A stretch of 32,000 bases of DNA from Edaphobacter aggregans (GTDB lineage Bacteria; Acidobacteriota; Terriglobia; Terriglobales; Acidobacteriaceae): NCBI RefSeq assembly GCF_003945235.1, contig NZ_RSDW01000001.1, forward strand, positions 3,090,001-3,122,000, written 5' to 3'. Below are positions 3,433 to 25,940 of the stretch, in pieces. Numbering within the stretch: the first letter of the stretch is position 1; each line of letters begins with the position of its first letter. Below the pieces are notes generated by a model. The model was not told where the DNA came from. It searched no databases and saw only the letters and a program-made list of their open reading frames with translations. Position numbers and translations under genes: made by a program.

Positions 3433-3596
3433 CCGCGGCTGGAAAGGCAATATAAAGACTATCTTGAGGTCGTTCCGCTCCCAGCAGGTGTCCGTCTTGC
3501 AAATGGTCTAACGCTCTTTCGCCAGCGAATCTTTGCCCCGCGATGGTGCATAATGATCACTCCTGAGTCCCGAAGAGCAACATCGCAAGGAGGATC

Positions 3597-3668
3597 ATGT
3601 CGTCTTCCATTTCGAAACGTCTACTAGTTTCGGAGAGTGCATCCAGTCGTAAGGAGATCGTCGAATGA
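3597..3668 (+). CDS. Candidate 23-codon upstream ORF / leader peptide (MSSSISKRLLVSESASSRKEIVE) overlapping the preT start
   Basis: The ATG at 3597 is preceded by AAGGAGG (3587-3593). Its TGA (3666-3668) overlaps the preT ATG (3665-3667) as ATGA. The preT Shine-Dalgarno AAGGAG (3651-3656) lies inside the uORF, as does a 7-bp stem-loop (3612-3618 / 3627-3633). There is no homology evidence. Confidence 0.3.
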   Translation: MSSSISKRLLVSESASSRKEIVE

Positions 3669-5023: not shown

Positions 5024-6428
5024 GCCAACTCTTGAAACGACCTTCTGCGGCATCAAGTGCCTCAACCCCTTCTGGCTGGCATCGGCCCCTCCAACCAACT
5101 GCGGCGAGCAGATCATGCGCGCCTTCGACGCAGGCTGGGGCGGTGCCGTATGGAAGACCATCGGCGAGCCCATCACCAACGTCAGTTCGCGCTACTCCTC
5201 TATCGACTGGGAAGGCCGCCGCATGATGGGCTTCAACAACATCGAGCTCATCAGCGACCGGCCCATCGAAGTTAACCTGCGGGAGATCGCCGAAGTAAAA
5301 CGCCGCTACCCAAAGCACGTCGTCATCGCATCTCTCATGGTCGAAAGCGCGCGCGAGACATGGCACGACATCGTCCAGCGCTCCGAAGACGCAGGCGCAG
5401 ACGGCCTCGAGCTCAACTTCGGCTGTCCCCACGGTATGAGCGAGCGCGGCATGGGCTCCGCCGTCGGTCAAGTCCCCGAGTACTGCGAGCAGATCACCTC
5501 ATGGGTAAAAGAGAAGGCCCGCACACCCGTCATCGTCAAACTAACTCCGAACATCTCTGATATTCGCATGCCTGCACGCGCTGCCAAACGCGCCGGAGCC
5601 GACGCTCTCTCCGCCATCAACACCATCAACTCCATCACAGGCATCGACCTCAATACACTGCAGCCAAACCCGAACGTCGACGGCAAGAGTTCGCACGGCG
5701 GCTACTGTGGCCCTGCAGTAAAGCCCATCGCGCTCAACATGGTGCAACAGGTCCAGTCCGATCTCCTTGCCACACTCCCACTCTCCGGCATCGGAGGCAT
5801 AGCCACCTGGCGAGACGTCGCCGAATTCATCCTCCTCGGCTGCAGCACAGTGCAAGTCTGCACAGCGGTCATGCACTACGGCTACCGCATCGTCGAAGAC
5901 ATGCAGGACGGCCTGCTCGCGTGGATGACAGAAAAAAGTTTCGCCACCATCGACGACTTCCGCGGCCTCTCACTCCCCAACGTGCGCGAGTGGAAGCATC
6001 TTAACCTCAACTACAAGATCGTAGCCCGCATCCACGAAGACCTCTGCATCGGCTGCCAGCTCTGCTACACCGCCTGCTGGGACGGCGCCCACCAATGCAT
6101 CCATCTCGACCGAACCGCACCAGCACCGGACACAACGCTCACGCCAGCGATGGTAGAAGCCGAAGCCTCACGTCGCATCTCAACAACACCCATCCCAAAA
6201 CTCGACTCCGGCTTGACCCACACCAACGCAGTCACTCCACTCGAACGAATCCCCCGCGTCGATGAAGATCACTGCGTAGGCTGCAATCTCTGCTCACTCG
6301 TCTGCCCCGTCGACAACTGCATCACCATGGAGCGCATCGACAACGGTCTACCCCCACAGACATGGGAAGAGCGCACCGCCGCAGGCCTCGTCCCCGCAGG
6401 CACAAGTGAGGTCCTAACCAACGGCTAG
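5010..6428 (+). CDS. preA: NAD-dependent dihydropyrimidine dehydrogenase subunit PreA (DHODH-like barrel plus C-terminal 2x[4Fe-4S] ferredoxin)
   Basis: 472 aa. TFCGIKCLNPFWLASAPPTNC..AGWGGAVWKTIG matches the E. coli PreA N-terminus. Also present are NFGCPHG and the C-terminal motifs CIGCQLCYTAC and CVGCNLCSLVCP. The start overlaps the preT 3' end by 14 nt. Confidence 0.9.
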   Translation: MSKPKPTLETTFCGIKCLNPFWLASAPPTNCGEQIMRAFDAGWGGAVWKTIGEPITNVSSRYSSIDWEGRRMMGFNNIELISDRPIEVNLREIAEVKRRYPKHVVIASLMVESARETWHDIVQRSEDAGADGLELNFGCPHGMSERGMGSAVGQVPEYCEQITSWVKEKARTPVIVKLTPNISDIRMPARAAKRAGADALSAINTINSITGIDLNTLQPNPNVDGKSSHGGYCGPAVKPIALNMVQQVQSDLLATLPLSGIGGIATWRDVAEFILLGCSTVQVCTAVMHYGYRIVEDMQDGLLAWMTEKSFATIDDFRGLSLPNVREWKHLNLNYKIVARIHEDLCIGCQLCYTACWDGAHQCIHLDRTAPAPDTTLTPAMVEAEASRRISTTPIPKLDSGLTHTNAVTPLERIPRVDEDHCVGCNLCSLVCPVDNCITMERIDNGLPPQTWEERTAAGLVPAGTSEVLTNG

Positions 6429-6459
6429 CAGCAAATCAACCAGAGGCAAGAGACGCAGC

Positions 6460-7863
6460 ATGGGAACTCTCATTCAAAACGGAACCGTCGTCAACGCAAC
6501 CGGCCAGCAGAAAGCCGACGTACTCATCGAAGGCGAGACCGTCACCCAGGTCGCTCCCAACATCGCCCCCGACAGCCATACCACCGTCGATGCCACCGGC
6601 CTCTTCGTCATCCCCGGCGGAGTCGATGCCCACACCCACATGGACATGCCCTTCGGCGGCACCGTCTCCGCTGACGACTTCCTCACCGGCACTCGCGCCG
6701 CAGCCATCGGCGGCACCACCACCATCGTCGACTTCGCCATTCAGGCACGCGGTACACGCATGCGCGACGCACTCGACATCTGGCGCGCCAAGGCCGAGGG
6801 CAAGGCCTGCATCGACTACGGCCTGCACATGATCGTCACCGACCTCGGTTCCGACGCAGGCAAACAGGGTCTCGCCGACATGGACGACATGGTGCGCGAA
6901 GGCGTCGCCAGCTTCAAGCTCTTCATGGCCTACCCCAACGTGCTCATGGTCGACGACGCCACCATCTTCAAGGCGCTCCAGCAGACCGCGAAGAACGGCG
7001 CGCTCATCTGCATGCACGCCGAAAACGGCTCTGTTATCGACACCATCGTCCAGCAGACGCTCGCCCAGGGAAAGACCGCACCCATCTATCACGCGCTCTC
7101 ACGCCCCACCATCGCCGAGGCCGAGGCCGTCAATCGCTGCATTGCCATGGCCGAGATCGCAGGCACCCCCATCTACATCGTCCATCTCTCCAGCGAAGAC
7201 GCGCTCAATCAGGTGCGCGAAGCACGCGACCGCGGCCTGCCCGCATTCGCCGAGACATGCCCGCAGTACCTCCTGCTCTCCATCGAAGACCAGATGCCCG
7301 GCAAGAGCTTCGAAGAAGCCAAGTACGTCTTCACACCACCATTGCGCGAGAAGAAGAACCAACCCAAACTCTGGGACGGCCTCGTGCACGACCATCTGCA
7401 GGTCGTCTCGACCGACCACTGCCCCTTCTGCTTCGCCGATCAGAAGCAGCTCGGCAAGGATGATTTTTCTAAGATCCCCAACGGAGGCCCCGGCGTCGAA
7501 AACCGCATGCAGCTGCTCTTTCATCACGGCGTCAATGCCGGAAAGATCACTCTCGAGCGCTTCGTCGAGATCACCTCTGCCGCACCCGCCCGCATCTTCG
7601 GTATGTATCCCACCAAGGGCGTCATCGCCCCAGGAGCCGATGCAGACATCGTCCTCTGGAACCCCGCAGCGGAACACCTCATCTCCGCCGCAACGCACAG
7701 CATGCGCTGCGATTACTCCATGTTCGAGGGATGGAAGGTGAAGGGCAACGCGCAAAAAGTCTTCTCGCGAGGCGAGCTCATCGTCGACAACGGCAAGTAC
7801 ATCGCGGCAACTGGACGCGGCAAATACATCCGTCGCGAAGCACGAGGAGGAGCCTGGAAATGA
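6460..7863 (+). CDS. hydA: Dihydropyrimidinase / D-hydantoinase (cyclic amidohydrolase)
   Basis: 467 aa. Metal-binding GGVDAHTHMDMPF, the carboxylated-lysine context SFKLFMAY, HAENG and STDHCPF are typical of the dihydropyrimidinase/hydantoinase family. Confidence 0.9.
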   Translation: MGTLIQNGTVVNATGQQKADVLIEGETVTQVAPNIAPDSHTTVDATGLFVIPGGVDAHTHMDMPFGGTVSADDFLTGTRAAAIGGTTTIVDFAIQARGTRMRDALDIWRAKAEGKACIDYGLHMIVTDLGSDAGKQGLADMDDMVREGVASFKLFMAYPNVLMVDDATIFKALQQTAKNGALICMHAENGSVIDTIVQQTLAQGKTAPIYHALSRPTIAEAEAVNRCIAMAEIAGTPIYIVHLSSEDALNQVREARDRGLPAFAETCPQYLLLSIEDQMPGKSFEEAKYVFTPPLREKKNQPKLWDGLVHDHLQVVSTDHCPFCFADQKQLGKDDFSKIPNGGPGVENRMQLLFHHGVNAGKITLERFVEITSAAPARIFGMYPTKGVIAPGADADIVLWNPAAEHLISAATHSMRCDYSMFEGWKVKGNAQKVFSRGELIVDNGKYIAATGRGKYIRREARGGAWK

Positions 7864-9317
7864 TGCCGCCCGCGCCCAGCCCCGACATCGTCTATCAAGA
7901 CACGCCGCACGACCCACATCTCTACAACGCCGACCTCGCCCCCACGACGCCCGCGCAGCGCACCTGGACCACCTACAACTACATCGCCCTCTGGTTCTCC
8001 ATGTCCATGGAGGTCACCACCTACATGCTCGCCTCCTCGCTCATCGCTGGCGGCATGAACTGGAAGCAGGCCATCTTCACCATCCTGCTCGGCAACCTCA
8101 TCGTCCTCATCCCCATGCTCCTCAACGCACACGCCGGAACGAAGTACGGCATCCCATTCCCCGTCTTCGTGCGCGCAAGCTTCGGCACTCGCGGAGCCAA
8201 CCTTCCCGCGATGCTACGCGCCCTCGTAGCCTGCGGATGGTTCGGCATCCAATCATGGCTCGGCGGACAGGCCATCGCCGCCATGCTCGCCGTCCTCTGG
8301 CCCGCAACCGCCCACATGCCAGCAGTCCTCTGGGCAAGCTTCCTCGGCTTCTGGCTGCTCAACATGTTCGTCGTCTGGCGCGGCGTCGAATCCATCCGCT
8401 TCCTGCAAAGCTTCTCCGCTCCCTTCATGCTCATCATGTCGCTCACGCTGCTCTTCTGGATGCTCCACAAAGCCGGCGGCTTCGGCCCCATGCTCTCCGC
8501 GCCCAGCCAATTCAAAACCACCAGTAGCTTCTTACATTTCTTCTTCCCATCACTCACCGCCATGGTCGGCTACTGGGCCACACTCTCGCTCAACATCCCC
8601 GACTTCACCCGCTACGCCAAAAATCAGGACGCACAAATCGTCGGCCAGGTCTTCGGACTCCCCGTCGCCATGACGCTCTACTCCTTCATCGGAATCGCCT
8701 GCACCTCGGCATCCGTCACCATCTTCGGTGAACCCATCTGGTCACCCATCACGCTGCTCGGAAAATTTCACCAACCTTTCGCAGCAATGCTCGCCCTCGT
8801 AGCTCTACTCGTCGCAACGTTGAACGTCAACATCGGCGCCAACGTAGTCTCCCCCTCCAACGACTTCTCCAACCTGGCCCCACGCCTCATCAGCTTCCGC
8901 ACCGGAGGTCTCATCACCGGTTTCCTCGGCCTCGCCATGATGCCCTGGAAATTAATGGCGACCTTCGGCAGTTACATATTCGGATGGCTCATCGGCTACT
9001 CCGGCCTCCTCGGTCCCGTCGCAGGCATCATGGTTGCGGACTACTTCTTCATTCGCGGCACGCGCCTCGATGTCGTCTCGCTCTACCACCGCGACGGCCC
9101 CTACGAATACACCCGCGGCATCAATCCTCGAGCCATCGTCGCGCTTGCAATCGGCGTCATCGTCGCCCTTATCGGCCTCGTCATTCCTGCCCTGCGATTC
9201 CTCTACGACTACGCCTGGTTCGTAGGCTTCTTCATCGCGGCCGCCACCTACTACGTCCTCATGCTGCAATACACCTCAACGCCACAGACGACATCGAACC
9301 ACCTATCAAGCGTCTAA
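7860..9317 (+). CDS. NCS1-family nucleobase:cation symporter (uracil/cytosine/hydantoin-type permease)
   Basis: ORF track 7731..9317 trimmed to the ATG at 7860, which overlaps the hydA stop as ATGA. The discarded 43 codons are Arg-rich and lie inside hydA. The product has about 12 hydrophobic helices and NCS1-like motifs (NxDLAPT, WTTYNYIALWFSM, GTKYGIPFPV). Confidence 0.85.
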   Translation: MMPPAPSPDIVYQDTPHDPHLYNADLAPTTPAQRTWTTYNYIALWFSMSMEVTTYMLASSLIAGGMNWKQAIFTILLGNLIVLIPMLLNAHAGTKYGIPFPVFVRASFGTRGANLPAMLRALVACGWFGIQSWLGGQAIAAMLAVLWPATAHMPAVLWASFLGFWLLNMFVVWRGVESIRFLQSFSAPFMLIMSLTLLFWMLHKAGGFGPMLSAPSQFKTTSSFLHFFFPSLTAMVGYWATLSLNIPDFTRYAKNQDAQIVGQVFGLPVAMTLYSFIGIACTSASVTIFGEPIWSPITLLGKFHQPFAAMLALVALLVATLNVNIGANVVSPSNDFSNLAPRLISFRTGGLITGFLGLAMMPWKLMATFGSYIFGWLIGYSGLLGPVAGIMVADYFFIRGTRLDVVSLYHRDGPYEYTRGINPRAIVALAIGVIVALIGLVIPALRFLYDYAWFVGFFIAAATYYVLMLQYTSTPQTTSNHLSSV

Positions 9318-9362
9318 CCAATTCACCGTCCTCGAATGGAGTCGCCATTTGAATCAAGAAGA

Positions 9363-9409
9363 AGTGGTATCTAGGTTAAGAGTTGTTTTGAAAGCAGTGG
9401 CATCTAGGT
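9363..9409. repeat. Two 14-nt direct repeats AGTGG(T/C)ATCTAGGT spaced 33 nt (start to start)
   Basis: 9363-9376 AGTGGTATCTAGGT and 9396-9409 AGTGGCATCTAGGT are 13/14 identical. They lie in the 234-nt gap between the NCS1 permease and the aminotransferase. Confidence 0.6.
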
Positions 9410-9411
9410 AA

Positions 9412-9470
9412 CCCAAGGCTTTAGCCTTGGGCCTCTTTCGGGTCTGAAAAATAATGGGGGCTTTAGCCCC
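9412..9470. repeat. Twin GC-stem hairpins sharing the core GGCTTTAGCC (REP-like intergenic element)
   Basis: Hairpin 1 is CCCAAGGC-TTTA-GCCTTGGG (9412-9431). Hairpin 2 is GGGGC-TTTA-GCCCC (9457-9470). The 10-mer GGCTTTAGCC occurs at 9417-9426 and 9459-9468. Confidence 0.6.
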
Positions 9471-9551
9471 TGGGGTATGCCTCCTGCGTTGCCCGCCACG
9501 CAAAGCAGACGTGATCAACTAACCTGAGCACCAACGAATAGGATCTACACC

Positions 9552-10922
9552 ATGAGCCCCACCGACACCGCCGCATCCCAAGCCCTCACCAGCCAACAAG
9601 TCGTAGACCTCACCCGCCAATACAACTACGGCACCTGGCGATTCCAGCGCAACTGGAACCCGATGCACATCGCCGACGCCGAAGGCTGCTACCTCATCGA
9701 CGGCTCAGGCAAGCGCTACCTCGACTTCTCCTCGCAGCTCATGTGCTCCAACCTCGGCCACAAAAATCAGGCCGTCATCGACGCCATCGCCCACCAGGCG
9801 CAGCAACTCAGCTACGCCATGCCCGGCTACGCCACCACAGCCCGCGCCGAGCTCTCCCAACTCCTCGCCGAAATCCTCCCCAAAGGTCTCCGCAAATTCT
9901 TCTTCACCACCTCCGGCACCGAAGCCAACGAAGCCGCCTTCAAGATCGCCCGCATGTACACCGGCAAATCCAAGATCATCGCGCGCTACCGTTCCTACCA
10001 CGGCTCCACCATCGGCTCCATCGCAGCCACTGGAGACCCCCGCCGATGGGCCATGGAGCCCGGCGGCAAAGGCCCCGGCGTCATCTTCGCTCCCGAAGTT
10101 AACTGCTACAAATGCCCCATCCGCCACACATACCCCGGCTGCAACATCGCCTGCGCCGACTACATCGAGCACATGATCCGCAACGAGTCCGACGTAGCCG
10201 CAGTCCTCGTCGAACCCATCGTCGGCACCAACGGCGTCCTCGTCCCGCCCGACGAGTACATGCCAAAACTCCGCCGCATCTGCGACGAAAACGGCGTCCT
10301 CCTCATCGCCGACGAGGTCATGACCGGCTGGGGCCGCACCGGCGAATGGTTCGCCATGAACCACTGGTCCGTCATCCCCGACATCCTCGTCACCGCCAAG
10401 GGCATCACCTCGGCCTACGTCCCTCTCGGCCTCTGCGCCACCAGCGAAAAGATCGCCGAGTTCTTCCAGGACCACTTCTTCTCCCACGGCCACACCTACG
10501 AAGCCCACCCCATCACCCTCGCCCCCGCCGTAGCGTGCATCCACGAGATGCAGCGCCTCAACCTCGTCGAACGCGCCCGCGAACTAGCCCCCTACGTCGA
10601 AGCCAAACTCAACGACCTCAAATCAAAACACCGCAGCATAGGCGACGTCCGTGGCAAAGGCCTCTTCTGGGCCGTCGACATGGTCAAAGACCGCACCACC
10701 AAAGAGCCCTTCAACACCTACGCCGACAAGGTCTCCGGCAAATCCCTGGTCGTCGACCAGATCGCCGCCAAAATGCTGGCCGACGGAGTCACCATCCAGG
10801 CCTGGGTCTCCCACTTCGTCATAGCCCCACCCCTCATCGTCACCAAAGAAGAGATCGACCGAGGCATAGCCACCCTAGACAAACACCTCACCATAGCCGA
10901 CGAAGCCGCATCGCCTAGCTAG
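9552..10922 (+). CDS. Class-III PLP-dependent aminotransferase; by context beta-alanine:pyruvate (omega-amino acid) transaminase
   Basis: 456 aa. Motifs TSGTEANEAAFK, LIADEVMTGWGRTG and the PLP-lysine context ILVTAKGITSAY are present. It sits between the pyrimidine-ring-opening genes and mmsA. Confidence 0.85.
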   Translation: MSPTDTAASQALTSQQVVDLTRQYNYGTWRFQRNWNPMHIADAEGCYLIDGSGKRYLDFSSQLMCSNLGHKNQAVIDAIAHQAQQLSYAMPGYATTARAELSQLLAEILPKGLRKFFFTTSGTEANEAAFKIARMYTGKSKIIARYRSYHGSTIGSIAATGDPRRWAMEPGGKGPGVIFAPEVNCYKCPIRHTYPGCNIACADYIEHMIRNESDVAAVLVEPIVGTNGVLVPPDEYMPKLRRICDENGVLLIADEVMTGWGRTGEWFAMNHWSVIPDILVTAKGITSAYVPLGLCATSEKIAEFFQDHFFSHGHTYEAHPITLAPAVACIHEMQRLNLVERARELAPYVEAKLNDLKSKHRSIGDVRGKGLFWAVDMVKDRTTKEPFNTYADKVSGKSLVVDQIAAKMLADGVTIQAWVSHFVIAPPLIVTKEEIDRGIATLDKHLTIADEAASPS

Positions 10923-10951
10923 GCTGCATGCAAGTTAGCCAACATCGCTCC

Positions 10952-11005
10952 TGCTTGTCATTCTGACCCTGAGCGAAGCCGAAGGGGAAGAACCCCCGCA
11001 TTTCG
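10952..11005. repeat. Dispersed intergenic repeat, family 1 copy (TGCTTGTCATTCTGACCCTGAGCGAAGCCGAAGGGGAAGAACCCCC..)
   Basis: 48 of 54 positions are identical to 26001-26054 by hand alignment. It lies just after the aminotransferase stop. Confidence 0.8.
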
Positions 11006-11053: not shown

Positions 11054-11072
11054 CCAAACTTCCGTATTGCCG
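11054..11072 (+). repeat. Left 19-bp inverted-repeat terminus CCAAACTTCCGTATTGCCG
   Basis: Its exact reverse complement is present at 13198-13216. A 17/19 direct copy lies at 12386-12404. Confidence 0.85.
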
Positions 11073-11194
11073 GTGATACGGCAAAAACATCGCTCGTAGC
11101 GTGGTTTCAGCACCTATCGCTAGTTTAGATAAACCGATAAGCATCTGAACGAAGCGGATATAATTCGGCGCACACGCAGTGGGGGGCGTAATGG

Positions 11195-11584
11195 ATGAGT
11201 GATGATCTGGGCAATCCGGGAGAACCTGTGGCAGAGGTTGACCCGGATGAGCTGAAGGCTTTCTGGCAGGAAACACGCAACCTTCAAGCAGGACATCCCG
11301 GTCAGAATGTTGGTATGGGTCTTCACGTGATGAAAGCCACCTTCAAGCCGGGCGCGAACCTACCAGCGGTCTGGTATCGCTCGGCCATGATTCAGGTGCT
11401 TAACCAAGTAGCGCAAGAGCAGTTGGCTCCTTGGGTCAAGGATGAAGAGGTTTCGGATGCTGTCTTCCGAACGATGGCGACGATTCCGATGGAATGGATT
11501 GGACACACTGACCGAGAAGGCCTGCCCTTCGATGTGGAAGAGTTCTTCCGCCAATTGAGGGAAGACGGTGTGCAGAACGGCTGA
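11195..11584 (+). CDS. Hypothetical acidic 129-aa protein (no recognised domain)
   Basis: Clean ORF with coding-like composition. Its codon preference (G/T-ending: ctg, gat, ggt) differs from the C-ending preference of flanking genes. A perfect TATAAT at 11159-11164 lies upstream. There are no hydrophobic segments. Confidence 0.5.
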   Translation: MSDDLGNPGEPVAEVDPDELKAFWQETRNLQAGHPGQNVGMGLHVMKATFKPGANLPAVWYRSAMIQVLNQVAQEQLAPWVKDEEVSDAVFRTMATIPMEWIGHTDREGLPFDVEEFFRQLREDGVQNG

Positions 11585-11782
11585 CGTCGCCAAGCATGGA
11601 GGGAGCGAATGATGCTAAAGATTGCAATAGTTGTGATTCATGGTCGCGCCGGTATTGTGGCTATCGCCTGTTAGCGTCCGTTGACATCAACCTCCGGTTT
11701 GCCCGTCGTACGTCCTCGGTTGGGTCGTCCTTGGATTGCCACTTCATATGTTGGACTGTCGGATCCACCATGAGTACGATAC

Positions 11783-11795
11783 ATTCGGAAGTTTG
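11783..11795 (-). repeat. Degenerate core copy of the island repeat (CAAACTTCCGAAT on the minus strand)
   Basis: 12/13 match to the CAAACTTCCGTAT core of the 19-mer. It lies 23 nt upstream of the ATG at 11819 and also forms GGAAG-TTTGT-CTTCC. Confidence 0.4.
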
Positions 11796-11818
11796 TCTTC
11801 CCAAAAAAGGAGGGCGGT

Positions 11819-12235
11819 ATGAAGCGTGAGCGCGCTTTGCAGATCGTCTTGGTCTTGGCGGGCTTGTTTTATTCCTTTTGGGGTTACATCTTGTTCGATG
11901 CTCTGTGGCGTTCCAAATGGCTAATTCAGAATGACGACGTTTTGCCGATGTTCGTCAGCCTTAACTTTGTGCTTGGAGTCTTTCTGTTGCTGGCCGTTAA
12001 GCAACCGGCCAGGCATCGCTCGCTGATCGCCTATGGGGCTTGGTCAAGCCTTGCCCATGCGGCCACGATGACGATCCAATCCGCGGAGGCCTGGGCGCAC
12101 GGGATGCACAGGAAAGACAGTCCCCAGGACATTGTGATCATTGGCGTGGTTGGAGTCGCGCTCCTTGCACTCCTTCCGGCAAAACAACCAGCACCGGCCG
12201 GTCCCGTTCCTATCAGTGAGCCGCGTCTTGCCTAA
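11819..12235 (+). CDS. Small 4-TM integral membrane protein (138 aa), uncharacterised
   Basis: A strong RBS AAGGAGGG ends 5 nt before the ATG. There are four hydrophobic helices (ALQIVLVLAGLFYSFWGYILF, MFVSLNFVLGVFLLLAV, LIAYGAWSSLAHAATMTI, IVIIGVVGVALLALL). No catalytic motif was recognised. Confidence 0.6.
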   Translation: MKRERALQIVLVLAGLFYSFWGYILFDALWRSKWLIQNDDVLPMFVSLNFVLGVFLLLAVKQPARHRSLIAYGAWSSLAHAATMTIQSAEAWAHGMHRKDSPQDIVIIGVVGVALLALLPAKQPAPAGPVPISEPRLA

Positions 12236-12385
12236 CGCTAGAGCACCTGGTCCACCGCCGTGCCTGTATCGAGACGCAAGAACGTCCTCAGCGGAGCGCG
12301 GCGATTCGCTCCGTTGAATATGCCCGACGTTGCCGCTGCGTTACTTTTTGATTGTCGGCAACATGGACATTACGACCCAGCTCCG

Positions 12386-12404
12386 CGAAACTTCCGTATG
12401 GCCG
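12386..12404 (+). repeat. Internal copy of the island repeat (CGAAACTTCCGTATGGCCG)
   Basis: 17/19 identical to 11054-11072 and in the same orientation. It ends 12 nt before the stop-codon end of the GIY-YIG ORF and is inverted relative to 13198-13216. Confidence 0.7.
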
Positions 12405-12416
12405 GTTAACAGGGAC

Positions 12417-13181
12417 TTACAGCATCACTTTCGAGAAGCCGACTTGTGATGACTTGATGACGAAAATCACGCCTCGGTCGACCTCGATGTAGTCCTTCGC
12501 CCTCAGCTTATCGTTCTCGATTTTCGCCCACCGCGAGGCGAAGGACTTTAGCGTCCCCGTGTGCTCATAGTTGCTGTAGGTCTTCCAGACGTAGATGACC
12601 TTCGCACCAATGTCGGCCCTAGTGGCGAGCCGCAGGCCCTTGGCCTTGCACTCTGAGATGAATCGTGCATCGTTGTCGACGCTCGACGCCTTATTCCTGA
12701 CAAAGGTTGCGTAGTCGGCGGGAGCGAGGTTGATTAACGGTTCGCCCCGTGTCGGAAGCTCCATGTATATACGGTGTCGTCGCGGGTCACTCTTCAGCAA
12801 ATCGTCCCGATACTTCTCTATGGCCTCATCACTTTGGTGGGGAATCTTCCCCATCTTGTTATAGCCAAATCGAGGGTCAGCGGCGTTGAAGACACGAATC
12901 CACCACGACTCCGCGCTCTCTAGCTTTATCGCTTCTACGACCTCGATAACCCCAAACTTGAACTTATCGACGCCGTACACGCTATAGATGTCCTCGTGGA
13001 GCGGAATGCAGTGGAATCTGTCACAGCTAACATGGTCCGCACAGCGACTTCTGGCCGAATCATCTTTCTCATCCTTGCCGATGTAGATGCGTTTCGTGTC
13101 TTCGTTGCGAATGAAATAAACTGCGCCCATATAAAGGCTCTGACAATGTGATTTGATCCGATGGTCGCATTCTACAGGCAT
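12417..13181 (-). CDS. GIY-YIG nuclease (I-TevI/Seg-like catalytic domain) fused to an unrecognised ~130-aa C-terminal domain
   Basis: Residues 18-110 align by eye with the I-TevI catalytic domain. MGAVYFIRNEDTKRIYIGK matches MKSGIYQIKNTLNNKVYVGS. RSRCADH matches KRWKRH (catalytic Arg). ESAESWWIRVFNAADPRFGYN matches ERENFWIKELNSKINGYN (catalytic Glu and Asn). The more likely start is the internal ATG at 13130 (MGAVYF..), as in I-TevI. Neither candidate start has a clear SD. Confidence 0.7.
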   Translation of the reverse strand: MPVECDHRIKSHCQSLYMGAVYFIRNEDTKRIYIGKDEKDDSARSRCADHVSCDRFHCIPLHEDIYSVYGVDKFKFGVIEVVEAIKLESAESWWIRVFNAADPRFGYNKMGKIPHQSDEAIEKYRDDLLKSDPRRHRIYMELPTRGEPLINLAPADYATFVRNKASSVDNDARFISECKAKGLRLATRADIGAKVIYVWKTYSNYEHTGTLKSFASRWAKIENDKLRAKDYIEVDRGVIFVIKSSQVGFSKVML

Positions 13182-13197
13182 GTCGTGGTCGGATCGT

Positions 13198-13216
13198 CGG
13201 CAATACGGAAGTTTGG
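13198..13216 (-). repeat. Right 19-bp inverted-repeat terminus (CGGCAATACGGAAGTTTGG on + strand)
   Basis: Exact reverse complement of 11054-11072. It lies 16 nt upstream of the longest start of the GIY-YIG ORF. Confidence 0.85.
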
Positions 13217-13442
13217 CCCTTCACGGAATCAGACCACAGCCGCCTTGCGGAATTCGCTTGCCTGGTCGCGCTCCCGCGTCTCGTCGGCGAGCTTGGGTTT
13301 CGGTGACCGATTGAAGCGGCATCTGTCGATGGGCCGATATATCATCCATGCGATCCCATCGCCCGAACCGTTGTTTGCCCTGTCAAGTCCAAAACAGCCA
13401 TAACTGCAATCGAATCAATAACATCAATTTGCCGATTAATTA

Positions 13443-13464
13443 CCACCCACCTGCTAATCTAAAT
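13443..13464. repeat. Direct repeat copy 1: CCACCCA-CCTG-CTAATCTAAAT
   Basis: It shares CCACCCA and CTAATCTAAAT (18 nt in two blocks) with 13623-13643. Confidence 0.55.
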
Positions 13465-13471
13465 ACAGATC

Positions 13472-13499
13472 AAAAAAGAACCCCGACCACCCGTCGGGG
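13472..13499 (-). terminator. Rho-independent terminator (minus strand), probably ending the mmsA transcript
   Basis: Stem CCCCGAC (13481-13487) / GTCGGGG (13493-13499) with a 5-nt loop. On the minus strand the stem is followed by TTCTTTTTT (13480-13472). A weaker T-run (13505-13509) lies on the + side. Confidence 0.7.
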
Positions 13500-13622
13500 C
13501 GTCGTTTTTAAACCAAAAGAAAGGAGACCGCCAAATAACCAAAACAAAATGAATACTTTGCAGAAGCACCATCACGAAACCCGCGAATCCAGAGACTTTG
13601 CGCAAGCCCCAGTCAGACAGGT

Positions 13623-13643
13623 CCACCCATAACTAATCTAAAT
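13623..13643. repeat. Direct repeat copy 2: CCACCCA-TAA-CTAATCTAAAT
   Basis: See 13443-13464. It lies 35 nt beyond the mmsA stop codon. Confidence 0.55.
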
Positions 13644-13677
13644 GGAACACTTTACATAAAAGTGCGAGGGAGGGGTA

Positions 13678-15219
13678 CTACCCCAAAGTCGGCATAGAAG
13701 TATCAACCCCCGTCCGAATCCCCGTAGGCCACCGCGAGGTCACCGTCTTCAACCGCGTATAAAACCGCACCCCCTCCGGCCCATGCACCGAGTGGTCCCC
13801 AAACAGCGATCGCTTCCATCCGCCGAAGCTATGAAACGCCATCGGCACCGGAATCGGCACATTCACCCCGACCATGCCTGCCTGCACCCGATGCGCAAAG
13901 TCCCGAGCCGTGTCGCCATCACGAGTAAAGATCGAGGTCCCATTCCCATACTCATGCTCATTAATGAGCTTCAGCGCGGTCTCAAAATTATTTGTCCGCA
14001 CCACACCAAGCACAGGTCCAAAGATCTCCTCCCGATAGATCCGCATCTCCGGCTTCACATGGTCGAACAGGCAAGCCCCAAGAAAGAACCCTTCGCCTCG
14101 AGCCTGCGCATGCGAACGCCCATCAACAACCAGCTGAGCCCCTTCCTCAGTCCCAAGCTGAACATACCCAGTCACGCGCTCCAGATGAGCCTTCGTAACC
14201 AGCGGCCCCAGTTCTGCGCCTTCCTTCATCCCATCGCCAACCTGCAGCTTCTCAATACGCGTCTCCAGCTTGCCGATCAGAGCATCCGCCGTCGCGCTCC
14301 CCACCGTCACCGCAACCGAGATCGCCATGCACCGCTCGCCCGCGGAACCATAAGCCGCGCCCACAAGAGCATCCGCAGCCTGATCCAGATCCGCATCCGG
14401 CATCACGATCATGTGGTTCTTTGCCCCACCCAGCGCCTGCACACGCTTCCCATGCTTCGTTCCCTCGCGGTACACATACTCCGCAATCGGCGTCGACCCC
14501 ACAAAGCTCACCGCCTGCACCGTAGGATGGGCCAGCAGCGCATCCACCGCGACCTTATCCCCATGCACCACATTGAAGACCCCATCCGGCAGCCCAGCCT
14601 CCTTCAGCATCCCCGCCAGCAGGAGCGAAGCACTCGGATCGCGCTCACTAGGCTTCAGCACGAACGTATTCCCACACGCCAGCGCAATAGGAAACATCCA
14701 CATCGGCACCATAGCCGGAAAGTTGAACGGCGTAATCCCAGCCACCACCCCAAGCGGCTGCCGCATCGACCAGCTATCAATCCCCGACCCCACCTGCTCG
14801 GTAAACTCACCCTTCAGCAGTTGCGGAATCCCCGTAGCGAACTCCACGACCTCCAACCCACGAGTAGCCTCTCCCCGCGCATCCGAGAAGACCTTGCCAT
14901 GCTCACTCGTCAGCAGAGCCGCAACCTCATCCAGCCGCCGCTCAAATATCTCGCGAAACCGAAAGAGCACCCGAGCCCGCCGCAACGCCGGCTGAGCAGA
15001 CCACTCAGGAAACGCGGCAGCCGCCGCCACAACAGCAGCATCCACCTCCGTCGCCGTAGCCATCGCGACCTTTGCCTGCACCTCACCGCTGGCGGGGTTG
15101 TACACATCGCCAAACCGCCCCGATGTCCCAGCCACCAACCGGCCGTTGATCCAGTGTTGTACTTCACGAACCTTGCGATCTGCAGCAGAAGCAGAATTAA
15201 CTGCGGCGAGCGTAGACAT
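13678..15219 (-). CDS. mmsA: CoA-acylating methylmalonate/malonate-semialdehyde dehydrogenase
   Basis: 513 aa. Aldehyde dehydrogenase fold with [18 protein letters not shown] and the catalytic Cys context [10 protein letters not shown]. The overall MmsA-type sequence includes HWINGR..GDVYNPA.. Confidence 0.9.
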
Positions 15220-15290
15220 AGACGCCTCCGATTCGAGACGACCATCCTATCAGTTGTGCACGTCCTCCGCGATCATCCCGCCACTACGAT

Positions 15291-16295
15291 TCAAGGCAGC
15301 AGCGAGCCAGAACCTTGGAGCTTCTGTTCCAGCAAACGAGGCATATAGAAGCTAAAGAAGTTATCCGAATCAGACCGCAGGCACACAAACGTATTCGCCG
15401 CCCCCGGCTCCTCGCGCGTATACCCCTGATCATCAATGCGAAGCCGCAGCGGCTCAACCGGACACACCGCCGGATCAATCGCATAAGCCACCGCGACCGC
15501 ATCGAACATCGTCGGCGTCTGATTCTTCGTCTCACGCGACCACTGCAAATACAGCAGCGCAATCGCGTCGGTAAGATCCGTACTCCGCGTAAACAGCAGC
15601 TCCCGTTTCGTATCGTCAAGCTTCAGTTGCGTCGAATCGAGCGGCATCACATACAGCGGAACCCCCGACCCAAACACCTTCTTCGCAGCCTCAACATCCA
15701 TCGCGATGTTGTACTCAGGCTCAGGCCCGCGCGTAGGCAGATAGCCAAGGTCGTCATACCCCCGCCGCACCGATCCACCCATCATCACGATGCGCTTCAA
15801 TCGTTTGAAAGTCACAGGATCGCGATCAAGAGCCGCCCCAAGATTCGTCATAGGCCCCAGTGAGATCAGCGTAATCTCCCCCGGTCGCTGTCTGATCTGC
15901 TCCAGCAGAAAGTCCACTGCCTTCGGGTGCTCCCGTGGCGGTTGCCGCTGCGCCCACCGAGCCTGCGAGAAAGCGCCACCCCCCTTGCCATGTTTTTCGA
16001 TACCCACCGCAACAGGAATATCGCTGCGCCCAGTCTCGCTGAGCAAACGATCGAGCAGCCGGGCTCGAAGCTCCGTATCCCCCCAAGCCGACGTGATCCC
16101 TACGATATGCAACTCCGGACTAGACAAAGCCAGCCCCACCGCCAGAGCATCGTCGATATCATCCCCGATATCCGTATCGATGATCACCGGTTGAGCTGCA
16201 ACTGCTGGTCGCGCAGCTGTATTGACCTGCGCCGCACAGCAGCAGCACGCAAGCCACAGTGCAATTCCGGAAATACTCATCGAACGCTGTCTCAC
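15291..16295 (-). CDS. Inosine/uridine-preferring nucleoside hydrolase family protein with N-terminal signal peptide
   Basis: 334 aa. The IUNH signature is VIIDTDIGDDIDDALAVGLAL. The N-terminus is hydrophobic and Cys-rich (IALWLACCCCAAQ). The GTG start at 16295 has GAGGGGA 5 nt upstream; an ATG at 16280 is an alternative. It lies 71 nt upstream of mmsA on the same strand. Confidence 0.85.
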   Translation of the reverse strand: MRQRSMSISGIALWLACCCCAAQVNTAARPAVAAQPVIIDTDIGDDIDDALAVGLALSSPELHIVGITSAWGDTELRARLLDRLLSETGRSDIPVAVGIEKHGKGGGAFSQARWAQRQPPREHPKAVDFLLEQIRQRPGEITLISLGPMTNLGAALDRDPVTFKRLKRIVMMGGSVRRGYDDLGYLPTRGPEPEYNIAMDVEAAKKVFGSGVPLYVMPLDSTQLKLDDTKRELLFTRSTDLTDAIALLYLQWSRETKNQTPTMFDAVAVAYAIDPAVCPVEPLRLRIDDQGYTREEPGAANTFVCLRSDSDNFFSFYMPRLLEQKLQGSGSLLP

Positions 16296-16381
16296 CTGGG
16301 TCCCCTCACTACAAGCATGATCAAGATCATAAACAGCAGACCATCAAATTACCTCTTAGCGCTGCATATAAAAACTCATCC

Positions 16382-16421
16382 CATCAAAAGAAAAGCCCAC
16401 CCCTCTCCCCGAGAAGTGGGC
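16382..16421 (-). terminator. Rho-independent terminator (minus strand)
   Basis: On the minus strand the sequence is GCCCAC-(15-nt loop with an extra CTC/GAG pairing)-GTGGGC followed by TTTTCTTTTGATGG. It lies 40 nt downstream of the stop of the 16460-16648 small ORF. Confidence 0.6.
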
Positions 16422-16459
16422 CAGCGACACAAGGGCTTCAAGTAGCGGATGTAATACAA

Positions 16460-16648
16460 CTAATTCATTGCTATTTGTTTTGAGAGACGTTCCTGTATTC
16501 GCTGTACGGCTGTGAAGAAGAGTCCGGCGCAGACCAGCGAAGGGGTAAAGCGGTAGTTGGCTCCAAATCCTTCCCAATCGGTAACAATCCGCTTGAAGAA
16601 GGTGGCCCATGCAAAGTGTTCAGCGGAAACTTTCATCGAGGAAGTCAT
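16460..16648 (-). CDS. Small hypothetical protein (62 aa), one hydrophobic segment
   Basis: ORF track 16460..16675 trimmed to the ATG at 16648, which has GGAGGT 6 nt upstream. It is followed by its own terminator. No homology was recognised. Confidence 0.4.
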   Translation of the reverse strand: MTSSMKVSAEHFAWATFFKRIVTDWEGFGANYRFTPSLVCAGLFFTAVQRIQERLSKQIAMN

Positions 16649-16747
16649 AGCCCACCTCCAGTCTGCGAATCGCATAATCGTTGAGGAGAGGAAAAGACAG
16701 GGGCGGTCGGCTTGAACAGCGCGGCCGCCTCATCGTTCATTGGACAT

Positions 16748-17206
16748 TTACCGTACCGTGTTCAGCGCAACGACGATAGGACTTGAATCCTGCTTATTCT
16801 GCGCCTCTACCTTTTCTACCTTCTGTTCCATACGAGTCTTTGGGCACTCAAGGCCATCATGGTTGCCCGCCGTCCAGATCTGCCGCAGGAAATACTTGTC
16901 GCCGCGACGATCGAAAACGAGGGAGCTACCAGTCGGAGTGTGAGAAGTGTACGCAGCATGAACACTCACAAACTCCTCCGCCTTCTGATTAGTCTCGCGC
17001 AACTCAATCAGGCTGTCCGAGCGGGTGATGATATAGGTGCCCGCCGGCATCACTCGCAACCCTGCCTGAAAATCAAAGGGTATATCCGCCTTCGCCACAG
17101 GAGTGTTCTGGGCGAGAGCCGTCGGAGCCGAAGCAACCATGCCGATCGCCAGGGCAGAAGCGAGAAGACTGGATCCTAGGATGGAACTAATTCGTAGGCT
17201 TTTCAT
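16748..17206 (-). CDS. Secreted hypothetical protein (152 aa)
   Basis: An AAGGAGA RBS lies 5 nt upstream. The signal peptide is MKSLRISSILGSSLLASALAIGMVASAPTALAQ. The IPFDFQAG..MPAGTYII motif resembles a family of small secreted proteins that I recall as expanded in Acidobacteria. Confidence 0.6.
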   Translation of the reverse strand: MKSLRISSILGSSLLASALAIGMVASAPTALAQNTPVAKADIPFDFQAGLRVMPAGTYIITRSDSLIELRETNQKAEEFVSVHAAYTSHTPTGSSLVFDRRGDKYFLRQIWTAGNHDGLECPKTRMEQKVEKVEAQNKQDSSPIVVALNTVR

Positions 17207-17406
17207 GACGTTCTCCTTTTTAGGGAAGGACAGTCTTCATAACTGCCTTCACCCGTTAAAGCGGAGACCCCAGGTCATAAGTGCCACAATTTTTAAATTT
17301 ATTTTTCGCTGGCCCCACAAGGCGTACGGAGCGACAGCCTTCAGCAAGCATCGATACCATCCGCGGCCTGAGCGAAAATGGAAAAGCCACACGAAAGGGA
17401 CCCTCC

Positions 17407-18372
17407 ATGTCGTTCATTAGTCTCCGCAAGAGGACAACCGCCACTTTGTTCAGTCTTCTCCTCCTCCTGCTCACCTCCTCCTGCCTCTCCGCGCAGAATA
17501 TCGTCCAGCGCCCACACATCCTGGGCATCTCGCACGCCGGTTTCTTCGTGTCCGATCTCCCCAAAGCCCTCGACTTCTGGCAAGGCCTGCTGGGCTACGC
17601 CCAACCCTACGACATCAAGAAGCCCGACGGCACAACCCGCATCGCCTTCATCAAAATCAACGACCACCAGCACATCGAGCTCTTCAACGAAGCCTCCGCC
17701 GCCCCCGGCAACCATCTCAGCCACATCGCCTTCATCGTCGACAACGCCGAGCAGATGCGCCTCTACCTCGCCTCCCACGGCATCGCCGTTCCCTCCAAAG
17801 TAGGCAAAGGCAAAACCGGCGACGCCAATTTCGAAATAAAAGACCCCGACGGCACTCTAGTCGAATTCGTCGAGCCACAACCCGACGGCCTCGAAGCCCG
17901 CAACGCCGGCAAATTCCTCCCCTCCACTCGCATCTCCAATCAGATCCTCCATCTAGGCTTCCTCGTCGGCAACAGTCAGAAGTCCCTCGACTTCTACGGC
18001 ACCCTCCTTGGCTTCGGCGAGTTCTGGCGCGGCAGCTCCAACGGCAAAGAGCTCAGCTGGATCGACCTCCGCGTCCCCGACGGTCAGGACTACGTCGAGT
18101 TCATGCTCTACAACACCCTCCCGCCACCCGACCAATGGGGTGGCAAGAACCACGTCTCCCTCATGGTTCCCGACATCCAGCGCTCCATCGACACCCTCAA
18201 AGGCCGCCCTGCCTACCAGACCTACGGCAAGCCTCTCGACATGCACGTCGGCGTCAACGGTCAGCGCCAGGTCAACCTCTTCGATCCCGACGGCACCCGC
18301 GTCGAGCTGATGGAGCCCAACACCGCCAGCGGAAAACCAGTCCCACCCTCCACAGCTCCCCCACCGCACTAG
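17407..18372 (+). CDS. Two-domain VOC (glyoxalase/bleomycin-resistance/dioxygenase) family protein with signal peptide
   Basis: ORF track 17281..18372 trimmed to the ATG at 17407, which gives the signal peptide MSFISLRKRTTATLFSLLLLLLTSSCLSAQ. There are two VOC-like halves (ILGISHAGFFVSDL..HIAFIVDN..DPDGTLVEF and ILHLGFLVGN..HVSLMVPD..DPDGTRVELME). Confidence 0.75.
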   Translation: MSFISLRKRTTATLFSLLLLLLTSSCLSAQNIVQRPHILGISHAGFFVSDLPKALDFWQGLLGYAQPYDIKKPDGTTRIAFIKINDHQHIELFNEASAAPGNHLSHIAFIVDNAEQMRLYLASHGIAVPSKVGKGKTGDANFEIKDPDGTLVEFVEPQPDGLEARNAGKFLPSTRISNQILHLGFLVGNSQKSLDFYGTLLGFGEFWRGSSNGKELSWIDLRVPDGQDYVEFMLYNTLPPPDQWGGKNHVSLMVPDIQRSIDTLKGRPAYQTYGKPLDMHVGVNGQRQVNLFDPDGTRVELMEPNTASGKPVPPSTAPPPH

Positions 18373-18407
18373 GCAACGCAATGCCGCCGACATCATTTAA
18401 ATAAACA

Positions 18408-18438
18408 AACGGGCGCAACTCAATCGAGAGCGCCCGTT
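18408..18438 (-). terminator. Hairpin terminator between convergent genes (stronger in the minus direction)
   Basis: AACGGGCGC (18408-18416) pairs with GCGCCCGTT (18430-18438) around a 13-nt loop. On the minus strand it is followed by TGTTTATTTAAAT. Confidence 0.6.
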
Positions 18439-18461
18439 CGACTTCATGCCGACATCAGATC

Positions 18462-20255: not shown

Positions 20256-20431
20256 AAGGCCTCCAGAGATAAACTCGTATCAAATTTTGGGTTTGGCCCA
20301 AAGAACACCCAGAGCAGGTGAGGCAATTATGTACTCCTCGCCGCAGAAAAACACAAGGCAAAACAAAGTCAACAAATCAGTTAGTTCAGGTGGAAGGAAT
20401 CGATTAAGCAATAATTTGCAGATCCTGACGC

Positions 20432-22297: not shown

Positions 22298-22304
22298 AAC
22301 TCCG

Positions 22305-23576: not shown

Positions 23577-23620
23577 CGCAGCACCTTCCTCCACCATGCT
23601 ACGCCCCTTGCTGTAGCATT

Positions 23621-23663
23621 TGCCTTTCTCGCTTGTCATCCCCGTAGGGGATCTGCTTTTCGC
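23621..23663. repeat. Dispersed intergenic repeat, family 2 copy (GCTTGTCATCCCCGTAGGGGATCTGCTTTT core)
   Basis: Core 23631-23660 is 28/30 identical to 25952-25981. It contains the hairpin CCCC-GTA-GGGG. Confidence 0.8.
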
Positions 23664-23696
23664 TAGTGCCACCCAAGCGAGCCCCAACCGCCAATA

Positions 23697-23736: not shown

Positions 23737-23775
23737 CGTCCCCACAAAAACCCGTTAGCCTAACCCTCATCAACC

Positions 23776-24450: not shown

Positions 24451-24454
24451 CTCC

Positions 24455-25891: not shown

Positions 25892-25940
25892 CCCCACCGG
25901 TTAGCTATTTGCCTTCCTTTTTGGCATCGCTGTCTTGCCG

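Follow-up and report, generated by a model that had tools for sequence, protein, structure and literature searches.

The genome of Edaphobacter aggregans contains, at positions 11054 to 13216 of a 32,000-nucleotide (nt) stretch taken from contig NZ_RSDW01000001.1 (positions 3,090,001 to 3,122,000; here called the window), a segment that is bounded by a perfect 19-bp inverted repeat and carries a GIY-YIG nuclease gene. This segment is probably a short two-cassette array of a site-flanked cassette system that occurs across Acidobacteriaceae, with cassettes exchanged by recombination at sites referred to here as arms. As far as alignments with related loci (numbered with the prefix L) can place them, the cassette boundaries were shown to fall at a GT/AC dinucleotide within the arm; the outer half of each arm, and the spacer between neighboring cassettes, stays with the surrounding DNA, and the inner halves travel with the gene. 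The same alignments showed that cassettes have been replaced between near-identical genomes and that one gene can appear as an arm-bounded cassette at unrelated loci. The arms would be the sites of a trans-acting, site-specific recombinase encoded elsewhere in the genome.

Inverted repeats and composition of the locus

The 19-mer CCAAACTTCCGTATTGCCG was present as exact copies at 11054 to 11072 (plus strand) and 13198 to 13216 (minus strand) and as a 17/19 copy at 12386 to 12404 (plus strand). About 0.01 such matches are expected by chance in the window, and three or more copies occurred in 0 of 100 shuffles. Four copies of its 12-nt core, AAACTTCCGTAT, were found where 0.06 would be expected, the fourth being an 11/12 match at 11783 to 11794 on the minus strand. 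A further degenerate, inverted copy at 12340 to 12374 abuts the third repeat copy, and this site is therefore a back-to-back pair. A repeat search returned another degenerate copy at 11686 to 11722. The segment contains open reading frames (ORFs) of 129 amino acids (no family; orf129), 138 amino acids (a DUF6632 membrane protein), and 254 amino acids (with an N-terminal GIY-YIG domain). Domain searches identified no transposase or recombinase inside 11054 to 13216, the encoded proteins having no DDE, serine, tyrosine, or HUH domain. An earlier reading of the window made without database searches (the sequence-only reading) had reported the four repeat copies, judged the exact inverted match not to be expected by chance, and described the inner ORFs and the missing classical transposase, all of which was confirmed. 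It had also seen the segment as extra DNA at the junction of an aminotransferase gene and an mmsA-like gene, and this was borne out: the two genes lie 2,755 bp apart in the window, 176 bp apart in a more distant relative (L125), and 3.7 kb apart, with other genes between them, in L126.

The G+C content was 0.50 to 0.56 inside the segment, compared with 0.60 to 0.64 outside. Host strand skew is very strong in the window (GC skew of −0.2 to −0.4 on the plus strand) and absent from the insert, with only the 11- to 13-kb interval escaping it; the negative plus-strand skew was most marked at 6000 to 11000 and 14000 to 32000. At third codon positions in the flanks, plus-strand genes had 61 to 72% C and minus-strand genes ∼50% G. 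The contrast in composition drawn by the sequence-only reading was upheld, and the preference for C-ending codons that it assigned to the flanks applied to plus-strand genes only, those on the minus strand preferring G. No target-site duplication was identified directly outside the repeats, where the array flanks read ...GCTCT|CC and GG|CCCTT; the sole direct repeat at the array ends was GT, located inside the inverted repeats.

Arm sequence, distribution, and polarity

Alignment of 54 copies identified the 19-mer as the outer half of an arm of ∼36 to 40 nt, (C)CG-AAACTTCCGTATTGCCG-(GT|AC)-nATACGnCC.AGAAC. The outer half, (C)CGAAACTTCCGTATTGCCG, is highly conserved and is followed by an asymmetric dinucleotide and a less conserved inner half. 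The dinucleotide was GT in 25 copies (type A) and AC in 26 (type B). A scan of one genome per species (596 Gb) with the 17-mer AAACTTCCGTATNGCCG returned at least 120 loci, set against roughly 280 matches expected by chance. Among the matches listed, ∼25 were from metagenome-assembled genomes (MAGs) of Acidobacteriaceae/Terriglobales, often several per MAG, and these loci shared sequence past the searched bases. Relatives of the three inner proteins of the window were encoded at none of the 17-mer loci listed. An nhmmer profile built from the 54 arms identified 11 arms in 8 kb of L056, 8 in L088, 7 in L071, and 5 each in L097, L074, and L260. With the same profile, no arms were detected in 855,605 bp of contigs of Acidobacteriaceae type collected around homologues of the aminotransferase, nor in the remaining 30 kb of the window. 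Viral contigs gave 52 matches, nearly all of them one conserved coding match, and no arrays, and PLSDB plasmids contained no match to an arm pair. The sequence-only reading had allowed for a common, genome-wide intergenic motif unrelated to the nuclease gene; the lack of relation to that gene was found in substance, and genome-wide spread was not, the copies being clustered in arrays instead.

Arms usually lie back to back, pointing away from each other across spacers of 7 to 39 nt (AAAC to AAAC), and successive pairs are 0.2 to 4.5 kb apart, so that each segment is bracketed by inward-pointing arms. The segments hold one or a few genes in either orientation, and among their diverse cargo are genes for a TPR protein, for a PadR regulator together with an ABC permease, for hydrolases, and for small proteins that are secreted or located in the membrane; toxin-antitoxin genes also occurred at array loci. 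Arrays terminate in single arms that face inward, and their ends are half-pairs. All 18 typed back-to-back pairs consisted of one A and one B arm, and every typed segment had one A and one B end. The same dinucleotide therefore stands beside GCCG/CGGC on one strand throughout an array, where it forms a 2-bp direct repeat just inside the perfect 19-bp inverted repeats. In these terms, the window carries two tandem cassettes, A→[orf129, DUF6632]←B followed by A→[GIY-YIG]←B.

Cassette replacement between related loci

The most informative comparison was with L257, which was 96 to 97% identical to the window over 11660 to 12406 and 13186 to 19747 and has arms 3 and 4 (Table 1) in common with it. 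Between these arms the window has a 779-bp segment with the GIY-YIG gene, and L257 has a 1,268-bp segment with an unrelated 385-amino-acid ORF and no nuclease. On the left, identity stopped immediately after ...CGAAACTTCCGTATGGC(C/T)GGT, i.e., ...TATGGC(C/T)GGT|; on the right, it resumed at GTCGGCAATACGGAAGTTTG (|GTCGGCAATACGG at arm 4), and the right flank from 13186 onward, including mmsA, was 97% identical at the nucleotide level. The break in homology lay exactly at GCCG|GT on both sides. The outer 21 nt, including a rare G at a variable position, therefore stayed with the flank, and the inner half-arms went with the cassette. This swap supports one part of a proposal in the sequence-only reading, which had an 831-bp unit nested in a 2,163-bp composite: the 831-bp unit is exchangeable, and the nesting gives way to the tandem two-cassette array. 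Neither unit was found at other loci, where homology stopped at ORF ends or arm centers.

The break fell at the same position in two other comparisons. Between L262 and the window, identity was 92% over the DUF6632 region, with the inner half of its B arm included, and homology ended ∼6 nt before GTCGGC. L071 and L074, two contigs from one MAG, share a linker (outer B half, spacer, outer A half), with inner halves and cassettes that differ on both sides. In L260/L261, an A and a B arm enclose the DUF6632 gene as a one-gene cassette; this locus, unrelated to that of the window, has a GntR/NamZ cluster beside the cassette and two more arm-bounded cassettes after it, and the identity to the window (94% at the nucleotide level) covered the ORF only. 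In L266, orf129 together with an A arm and its leader (92% identity) was found downstream of an IS110 element, again at an unrelated locus.

The orf129 gene is next to the aminotransferase gene without an arm in L258/L259 and is absent from L257. It is flanked in the window by a ∼30-nt imperfect direct repeat (11098 to 11131 and 11645 to 11678), of which L257, without orf129, has one hybrid copy (553 to 592). The loss or gain of orf129 between these leader repeats looks like ordinary recombination. As a general site, the leader motif was ruled out by its distribution, being local to this locus only.

Proposed mechanism and points against it

If the arms are recombination sites, the DNA would be broken and rejoined at GCCG|GT or immediately beside it. 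Given the different centers of the two site types, A arms would recombine only with A arms and B arms only with B arms. A cassette could then be excised, inserted, or swapped, and never inverted. The excised circle would contain the cassette with one B arm, the spacer, and one A arm; it could insert at any arm, or two crossovers could swap one cassette for another, inversion by A × B recombination being blocked. In its fullest form, which we put forward as a possibility and no more, this would be a chromosomal cassette-exchange platform of Acidobacteriaceae, with genes held between heterospecific A (GCCG-GT) and B (GCCG-AC) sites that share one protein-binding half, a host recombinase that swaps the cassettes, and site centers that block inversion.

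A tyrosine recombinase of the Xer type is our first guess for the enzyme. Parsed for such an enzyme, the arm would be a CCGTAT-N8-ATACGG inverted repeat with an 8-bp center, TGCCGGTG in A and TGCCGACC in B (alternatively, 11 + 6 + 11), and the different 8-bp centers would make A and B heterospecific. The outer-half variants ACTTCCG and ATGTCCG are identical to the 7 nt with which the XerC arm begins in the predicted dif sites of Solibacter and Koribacter (PMC3025954, supplement 2). Parsed for a serine recombinase, the arm would consist of inverted half-sites around an asymmetric 2-bp crossover of uniform polarity, like attL and attR, and serine recombinases likewise produce a 2-bp polarity. 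Simple attP × attB integration fits poorly with the tandem layout and with the missing empty site. Any particular enzyme is much less likely than exchange at the arms itself.

Several observations weigh against exchange at the arms. No recombinase recurred near the arrays across the array loci compared, and the neighboring genes varied: L074 has an Xer-like tyrosine recombinase, L088 has both a large serine recombinase and IS1595, and L017 has a tyrosine recombinase and IS91. Among the loci examined, neither an empty docking site (outer-GT-outer′) nor a circular junction was found. Two features of true dif sites, the conserved ATAA/TTAT positions and the XerD arm, are missing from the arms. 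The outer halves of the two arms of a cassette were no more alike than random arms, and those of pair partners gave no likeness signal either way. Arm 1 (11057 to 11097) is a clean 41-bp indel relative to L258/L259, with a duplication of at most 1 nt, in an aminotransferase-orf129 region that is otherwise collinear with the window; a simple exchange of half-sites does not predict an indel of a whole arm. In addition, homology between the window and L257 at arm 1 starts inside the outer half and not at GT. The breakpoint evidence comprises five junctions, and recombination processes of other kinds are also at work here, as shown by the ORF-only homology of the GIY-YIG gene and of DUF6632 in L260.

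Near-palindromes in L010 (924 to 959), L021 (6548 to 6583), and L090 (1116 to 1151) were considered as empty docking sites and rejected, as they appear to be coding coincidences (Hsp20-like ERQYGSF by eye). These coding matches are false positives for arm searches, and the 17-mer loci of Bradyrhizobium (L013, L077 to L079, L087, and L113) may be coincidences of the same kind.

The GIY-YIG nuclease gene

The first ∼100 residues of the nuclease matched models of GIY-YIG and of group I intron and phage homing endonucleases (TIGR01453, E value 5.7e−9, below its cutoff; phrog_7168, 2.8e−9; PF01541, 1.4e−3, below its cutoff), and the core residues Y5, Y16, R29, H33, E74, and N91 were invariant in 10 homologues. 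All homologues start at M18 (ATG at 13130). The gene is therefore placed at 12417 to 13130, and of the 12- and 16-nt margins that the sequence-only reading gave between the ORF and the repeats, the right one widens to ∼67 nt. The full-length family is small, with 11 clusters at 90% identity and three representatives at an E value of <1e−30 in 1.84 billion proteins, compared with 14,486 relatives of the N-terminal domain alone. No family, NUMOD, helix-turn-helix (HTH), or solved relative was identified for the C-terminal half (120 conserved amino acids) in Pfam and in a PDB sequence search, and PADLOC returned nothing. The AlphaFold model (predicted local distance difference test score [pLDDT], 50) was too poor to use.

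Nuclease homologues were 92% (L121, 285 to 968), 88% (L264, 789 to 1471), 86% (L122, 8001 to 8679), and 71% (L123, 8001 to 8688) identical to the window in DNA sequence, and this identity was confined to 12452 to 13130. It spans the ATG to a conserved C terminus (VIFVIK), with unrelated flanks across the five contexts, including the window; the ORF in the window runs 12 codons past VIFVIK before its stop codon. Such homology suggests an ORF-sized mobile unit; limited as it is to the ORF in unrelated contexts, it shows that the gene moves independently, as do free-standing homing-endonuclease genes. No arms were detectable around the homologues in L121, L123, and L264, and weak arm-like sequences flanked that in L122 in the right places. 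The nuclease gene is neither necessary for arms nor generally linked to them; it is cargo, probably a selfish homing-type nuclease gene or a defense-type nuclease, and not the engine. Near the homologue in L123, a gene for a 692-amino-acid leucine-rich-repeat protein contains tandem diverged repeats of ∼66 to 70 bp (11845 to 12951).

Alternative explanations

The strongest rival starts from the linker (outer half, spacer, and outer half). It could be a tiny palindromic mobile element, akin to repetitive extragenic palindromes (REPs), bacterial interspersed mosaic elements (BIMEs), and REP doublets forming hairpins (REPINs) or to miniature inverted-repeat transposable elements, that has 19-bp terminal inverted repeats, inserts at GT in a palindromic target, and duplicates the GT; genes would be shuffled by homologous recombination. 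A 2-bp direct repeat outside perfect inverted repeats, as seen from the linker in all 18 pairs, is a classic signature of insertion, and one linker occurs at two loci of a single MAG with different flanks (L071/L074). The whole-arm indel of 41 bp without duplication is as expected for REP-like units, and mobile elements that favor hairpins lie in or at arms (the L096 group II intron and the L266 IS110 element ∼0.3 kb upstream). The two arm types also recall the BIMEs of Escherichia coli, in which two types of REP, Y and Z, alternate in inverted orientation. We nevertheless consider this account unlikely. Arms are extremely clustered, with none in the 855,605 bp of related DNA; those of an array share one polarity, which is unexpected from independent insertions; and arrays close with single inward-facing arms. 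If the inner halves were the target, a conserved palindrome of ∼30 bp would be needed between every pair of accessory genes. In the fetched loci, no REP-associated tyrosine transposase (RAYT) or other transposase was associated with the linkers.

Less probable still is that the arm-bounded segment is a non-autonomous transposon whose terminal inverted repeats are served by the DDE transposase of a related insertion sequence (IS) elsewhere and which lands next to its own copies. Mobile insertion cassettes of this sort are a described class (MIC231 in Bacillus), and perfect 19-bp inverted repeats around passenger genes without a transposase, together with the recurrence of the same passenger gene with arms at unrelated loci, would fit it. 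Such an element should have left a target-site duplication outside its repeats, and none was present at the array ends or at arm 1. Moreover, it is the inner part of both repeats that changes between the window and L257, the outer 21 nt remaining with the flank; the moving unit therefore excludes the repeat ends. The ∼2.3 Mb of fetched loci yielded no IS with ends of this kind, and the IS1595, IS110, IS91, and IS5-type genes near arrays were not arm bounded.

The sequence-only reading itself had favored a new class of IS in which the GIY-YIG nuclease recognizes the 19-mer and moves the 831-bp unit or the 2,163-bp composite. The position of the gene between inverted copies, its intact catalytic residues, the weak arm-like sequences around the L122 homologue, and the ORF-limited mobility of the gene across five contexts could be read in that way. 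As the enzyme of the element, however, the nuclease did not hold up: the same repeats bound dozens of cassettes with unrelated cargo and no such gene, L257 has another gene between the same arms, and the homologues in L121, L123, and L264 are without detectable arms. The full-length family is tiny where arms are widespread, and the 831-bp unit yielded no further copy. With no outside target-site duplication, no transposase of its own, and a replaceable GIY-YIG gene, a new IS class is very improbable.

The faintest prospect is a regulon in which the repeats serve as operators or promoters, with the nuclease autoregulated as the sequence-only reading had offered. Arms 1 and 4 lie upstream of and sense to orf129 and GIY-YIG, and a core conserved across genera would suit a protein-binding site. 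Against this, each cassette also has an antisense arm at a gene 3′ end, arm-to-start-codon distances vary from ∼20 to 130 nt, a promoter scan found no σ70-like promoter in the region, and the distribution of arms, the polarity rule, and the homology breakpoints are left unexplained or contradict it. Extracytoplasmic function (ECF)-type and σ54-type readings of the motif were rejected by eye because the spacing did not fit.

Features of the window

The features of the segment and its flanks are listed in Table 1. The aminotransferase gene is collinear with that of L258/L259 and L125. For orf129, no match was found in Pfam, PHROG, or PADLOC. In the degenerate arm at 12340 to 12374, the AAC box could be read at the expected offset. 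It is doubtful that the core copy at 11783 to 11795 is a functional arm.

Table 1. Genes, arms, and repeats in and around the array, in window coordinates
Feature	Position	Strand	Remarks
Class-III aminotransferase gene, left flank	9552..10922	+	Pfam Aminotran_3, E = 7.6e-94; closes the plus-strand arm of the catabolic cluster
Arm 1, type A	11054..11097	+	Outer half 11054-11072, GT 11073-74, inner half GATACGGCAAAAAC...; nhmmer 35 bits
Leader repeat DR1 (AGCGTGGTTTCAGCACCTATCGCTAGTTTAG)	11098..11131	+	Imperfect direct repeat of 11645-11678
orf129, cargo	11195..11584	+	Conserved protein of soil Acidobacteria, no known family; 186 homologues
Leader repeat DR2, second copy	11645..11678	+	L258 homology stops directly after ...ATCGCCTGTTAGC
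Degenerate arm CAACCTCCGGTTTGCCCGTCGTACGTCC	11686..11722	+	Upstream of DUF6632; 74% copy in repeat search; relic also in L257 and L262
Fourth core copy AAACTTCCGAAT	11783..11795	-	11/12, without GCCG extension; kept in DUF6632 upstream region of L257 and L262
DUF6632 membrane-protein gene, cargo	11819..12235	+	PF20337, E = 1.3e-10; 1751 homologues
Arm, type B, degenerate	12340..12374	-	Outer half 12356-12374, inner half 12340-12353; nhmmer 10.5 bits; right end of orf129/DUF6632 cassette
Spacer (linker) of back-to-back arm pair, 11 nt	12375..12385		Conserved in L257
Arm 3, type A	12386..12421	+	Outer half 12386-12404, GT 12405-06, inner half 12407-21; nhmmer 25 bits; left end of GIY-YIG cassette
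GIY-YIG nuclease gene, cargo	12417..13130	-	237 amino acids from M18; longest ORF reaches 13181
Arm 4, type B	13180..13216	-	Outer half 13198-13216, plus-strand GT 13196-97, inner half 13180-13195; nhmmer 32 bits; right end of array
mmsA-like aldehyde dehydrogenase gene, right flank	13678..15219	-	Pfam Aldedh, E = 2.4e-143

Two other features lie outside the array. An unrelated intergenic repeat, GTCATTCTGAC.CTGAGCGAAGCCGAAGGGGAAGAA, occurs at 10955 to 11000 and 26005 to 26047 (with an exact 22-mer at 10971 and 26020) and is found at the corresponding position in L258/L259; it resembles a dispersed repeat of Acidobacteria. A G+C-rich hairpin at 13481 to 13499, which has T runs on either side and separates arm 4 from the stop codon of mmsA, is probably a bidirectional terminator for mmsA. 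The window gave no match to structured RNAs in Rfam at the gathering score, nor at an E value of ≤1 in the 10- to 14.5-kb interval.

Mobile elements were located in or near arms at several loci. In L096, a group II intron (reverse transcriptase/maturase; Rfam D1-D4 and D5-D6) at 5130 to 6997 on the minus strand lies inside an arm, between ACCGGC and AATCCAGTAGTTTCGG, and was the only Rfam match in four array loci. The IS110 element of L266 (7362 to 8770) ends ∼0.3 kb upstream of an arm that has had its outermost bases replaced. In L017, the tyrosine recombinase and IS91 transposase genes (191 to 2337) begin ∼115 nt past the GAAC box of an arm, and in L088 an IS1595 transposase gene (2643 to 3632) is ∼0.6 kb beyond the last arm of the array. 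In L052, the 3′ end of an ABC-transporter gene is present three times (1686 to 1886, 2661 to 2753, and 3363 to 3564), and the second and third copies begin exactly at the outer end of an arm (←A), the pattern that marks tandem integration into a gene 3′ end. No such duplication of a target gene 3′ end was found beside the array in the window.

Implications and comparison with known systems

Inverted repeats on either side of a GIY-YIG gene are no evidence for a transposon driven by that nuclease, and the locus is best filed among site-flanked cassette or module systems. The literature searches made returned no description of the arms or arrays, and they have no Rfam match. If the arms are recombination sites, an abundant and poorly studied soil phylum has its own way to file and trade accessory genes, one that its site sequence and architecture would set apart from integrons and the dif modules of Acinetobacter. 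The arm profile provides a handle for the variable gene pool of Acidobacteriaceae in metagenomes. The arrays also help to explain assembly breaks, as the L260 and L257 contigs end in arrays, and a short pair of heterospecific sites with a host enzyme could become a tool for cassette exchange.

Terminal inverted repeats are what the segment shares with an insertion sequence; a transposase of its own, an outside duplication, and further copies of the element were not found. The 237-amino-acid nuclease resembles the products of free-standing GIY-YIG homing endonuclease genes in the match of its N-terminal domain and in a presence/absence pattern bounded by the ORF ends in five contexts. Homing endonucleases of the I-TevI type have a separate C-terminal DNA-binding domain (NUMOD, HTH, or zinc finger) and a defined homing site; in the protein described here, the conserved C-terminal 120 amino acids matched no such family, and its host is a bacterial chromosome and not a phage or an intron. 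Like the elements of the REP/BIME/REPIN group, the arms are units of ∼35 to 40 nt, often in inverted pairs with variable short linkers and of two alternating types, and are comparable in being targets of IS110-type elements. Those repeats are high in copy number and dispersed, whereas arms are low in copy number, lie in variable arrays (up to 11 in 8 kb), bracket genes, and had no RAYT in the fetched loci.

An insert made by a serine integrase is flanked by the hybrid sites attL and attR, each with an outside and an inside half-site, the outside halves being inverted around a non-palindromic 2-bp crossover of the same polarity. The arms share this hybrid-site layout, with ATACGG 4 nt further from the center in one type of half-site. 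They differ in that no integrase is in or beside the cassettes, the back-to-back tandem layout is unlike serial attP × attB integration, and no empty attB-like palindrome was found.

Acidobacteria have integrons (PMC8352920). Integrons and clusters of attC sites lacking integron-integrases (CALINs) resemble the arm arrays in consisting of mostly single-gene, largely unannotated cassettes with imperfectly palindromic sites of variable center. The L096 intron in an arm likewise recalls group IIC-attC introns, which insert in attC sites. A reading of the arms as attC sites was rejected on the order of the boxes, as the pairs read GTTCTGG...CCAGAAC and GTTTCG...CGAAAC and not 5′-RYYYAAC ... GTTRRRY-3′; an arm pair is thus GTT...AAC in place of AAC...GTT, and the R″/L″/L′/R′ boxes are missing. 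Integrons have one attC per cassette in uniform orientation, compared with two arms per cassette, both gene orientations, and half-pair array ends in the system described here. No IntI was found beside the array and no recombinase in the window; the recombinase of L074 scored 44 bits against a TIGR02249 cutoff of 265, and that of L017 was also below it.

The closest analogues, together with integron cassettes, are the dif (pdif/Xer) modules of Acinetobacter plasmids, in which accessory genes between inversely oriented short sites are strung together and acted on by host XerCD (PMC13141974, PMC10132070). Single modules are replaced between related replicons with junctions centered on the sites, matching central regions are needed, and IS elements target the sites (PMC13141974, PMC10132070). 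Inversely oriented bracketing sites and module replacement with junctions at the sites are common to both, and the 7-nt outer end of the arm corresponds to the start of the XerC arm of predicted acidobacterial dif sites (PMC3025954), the rest of dif being absent. A dif site has 28 bp (XerC arm, 6-bp spacer, and XerD arm), whereas the arms contain no XerD arm (TTATGTTAA; TTATGT(T/C)AAC) or ATAA/TTAT. Neighboring dif modules share one site, where adjacent cassettes here have two sites and a spacer; dif sites alternate between C and D types, where the arms form two types by their central dinucleotide with strict array-wide polarity; and dif modules are carried on plasmids of Acinetobacter, where the arrays are chromosomal and in Acidobacteriaceae. 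The logic of the proposed A/B platform is the same as that of engineered recombinase-mediated cassette exchange, and the platform, if true, would join integrons and dif modules as a third family of cassette systems.

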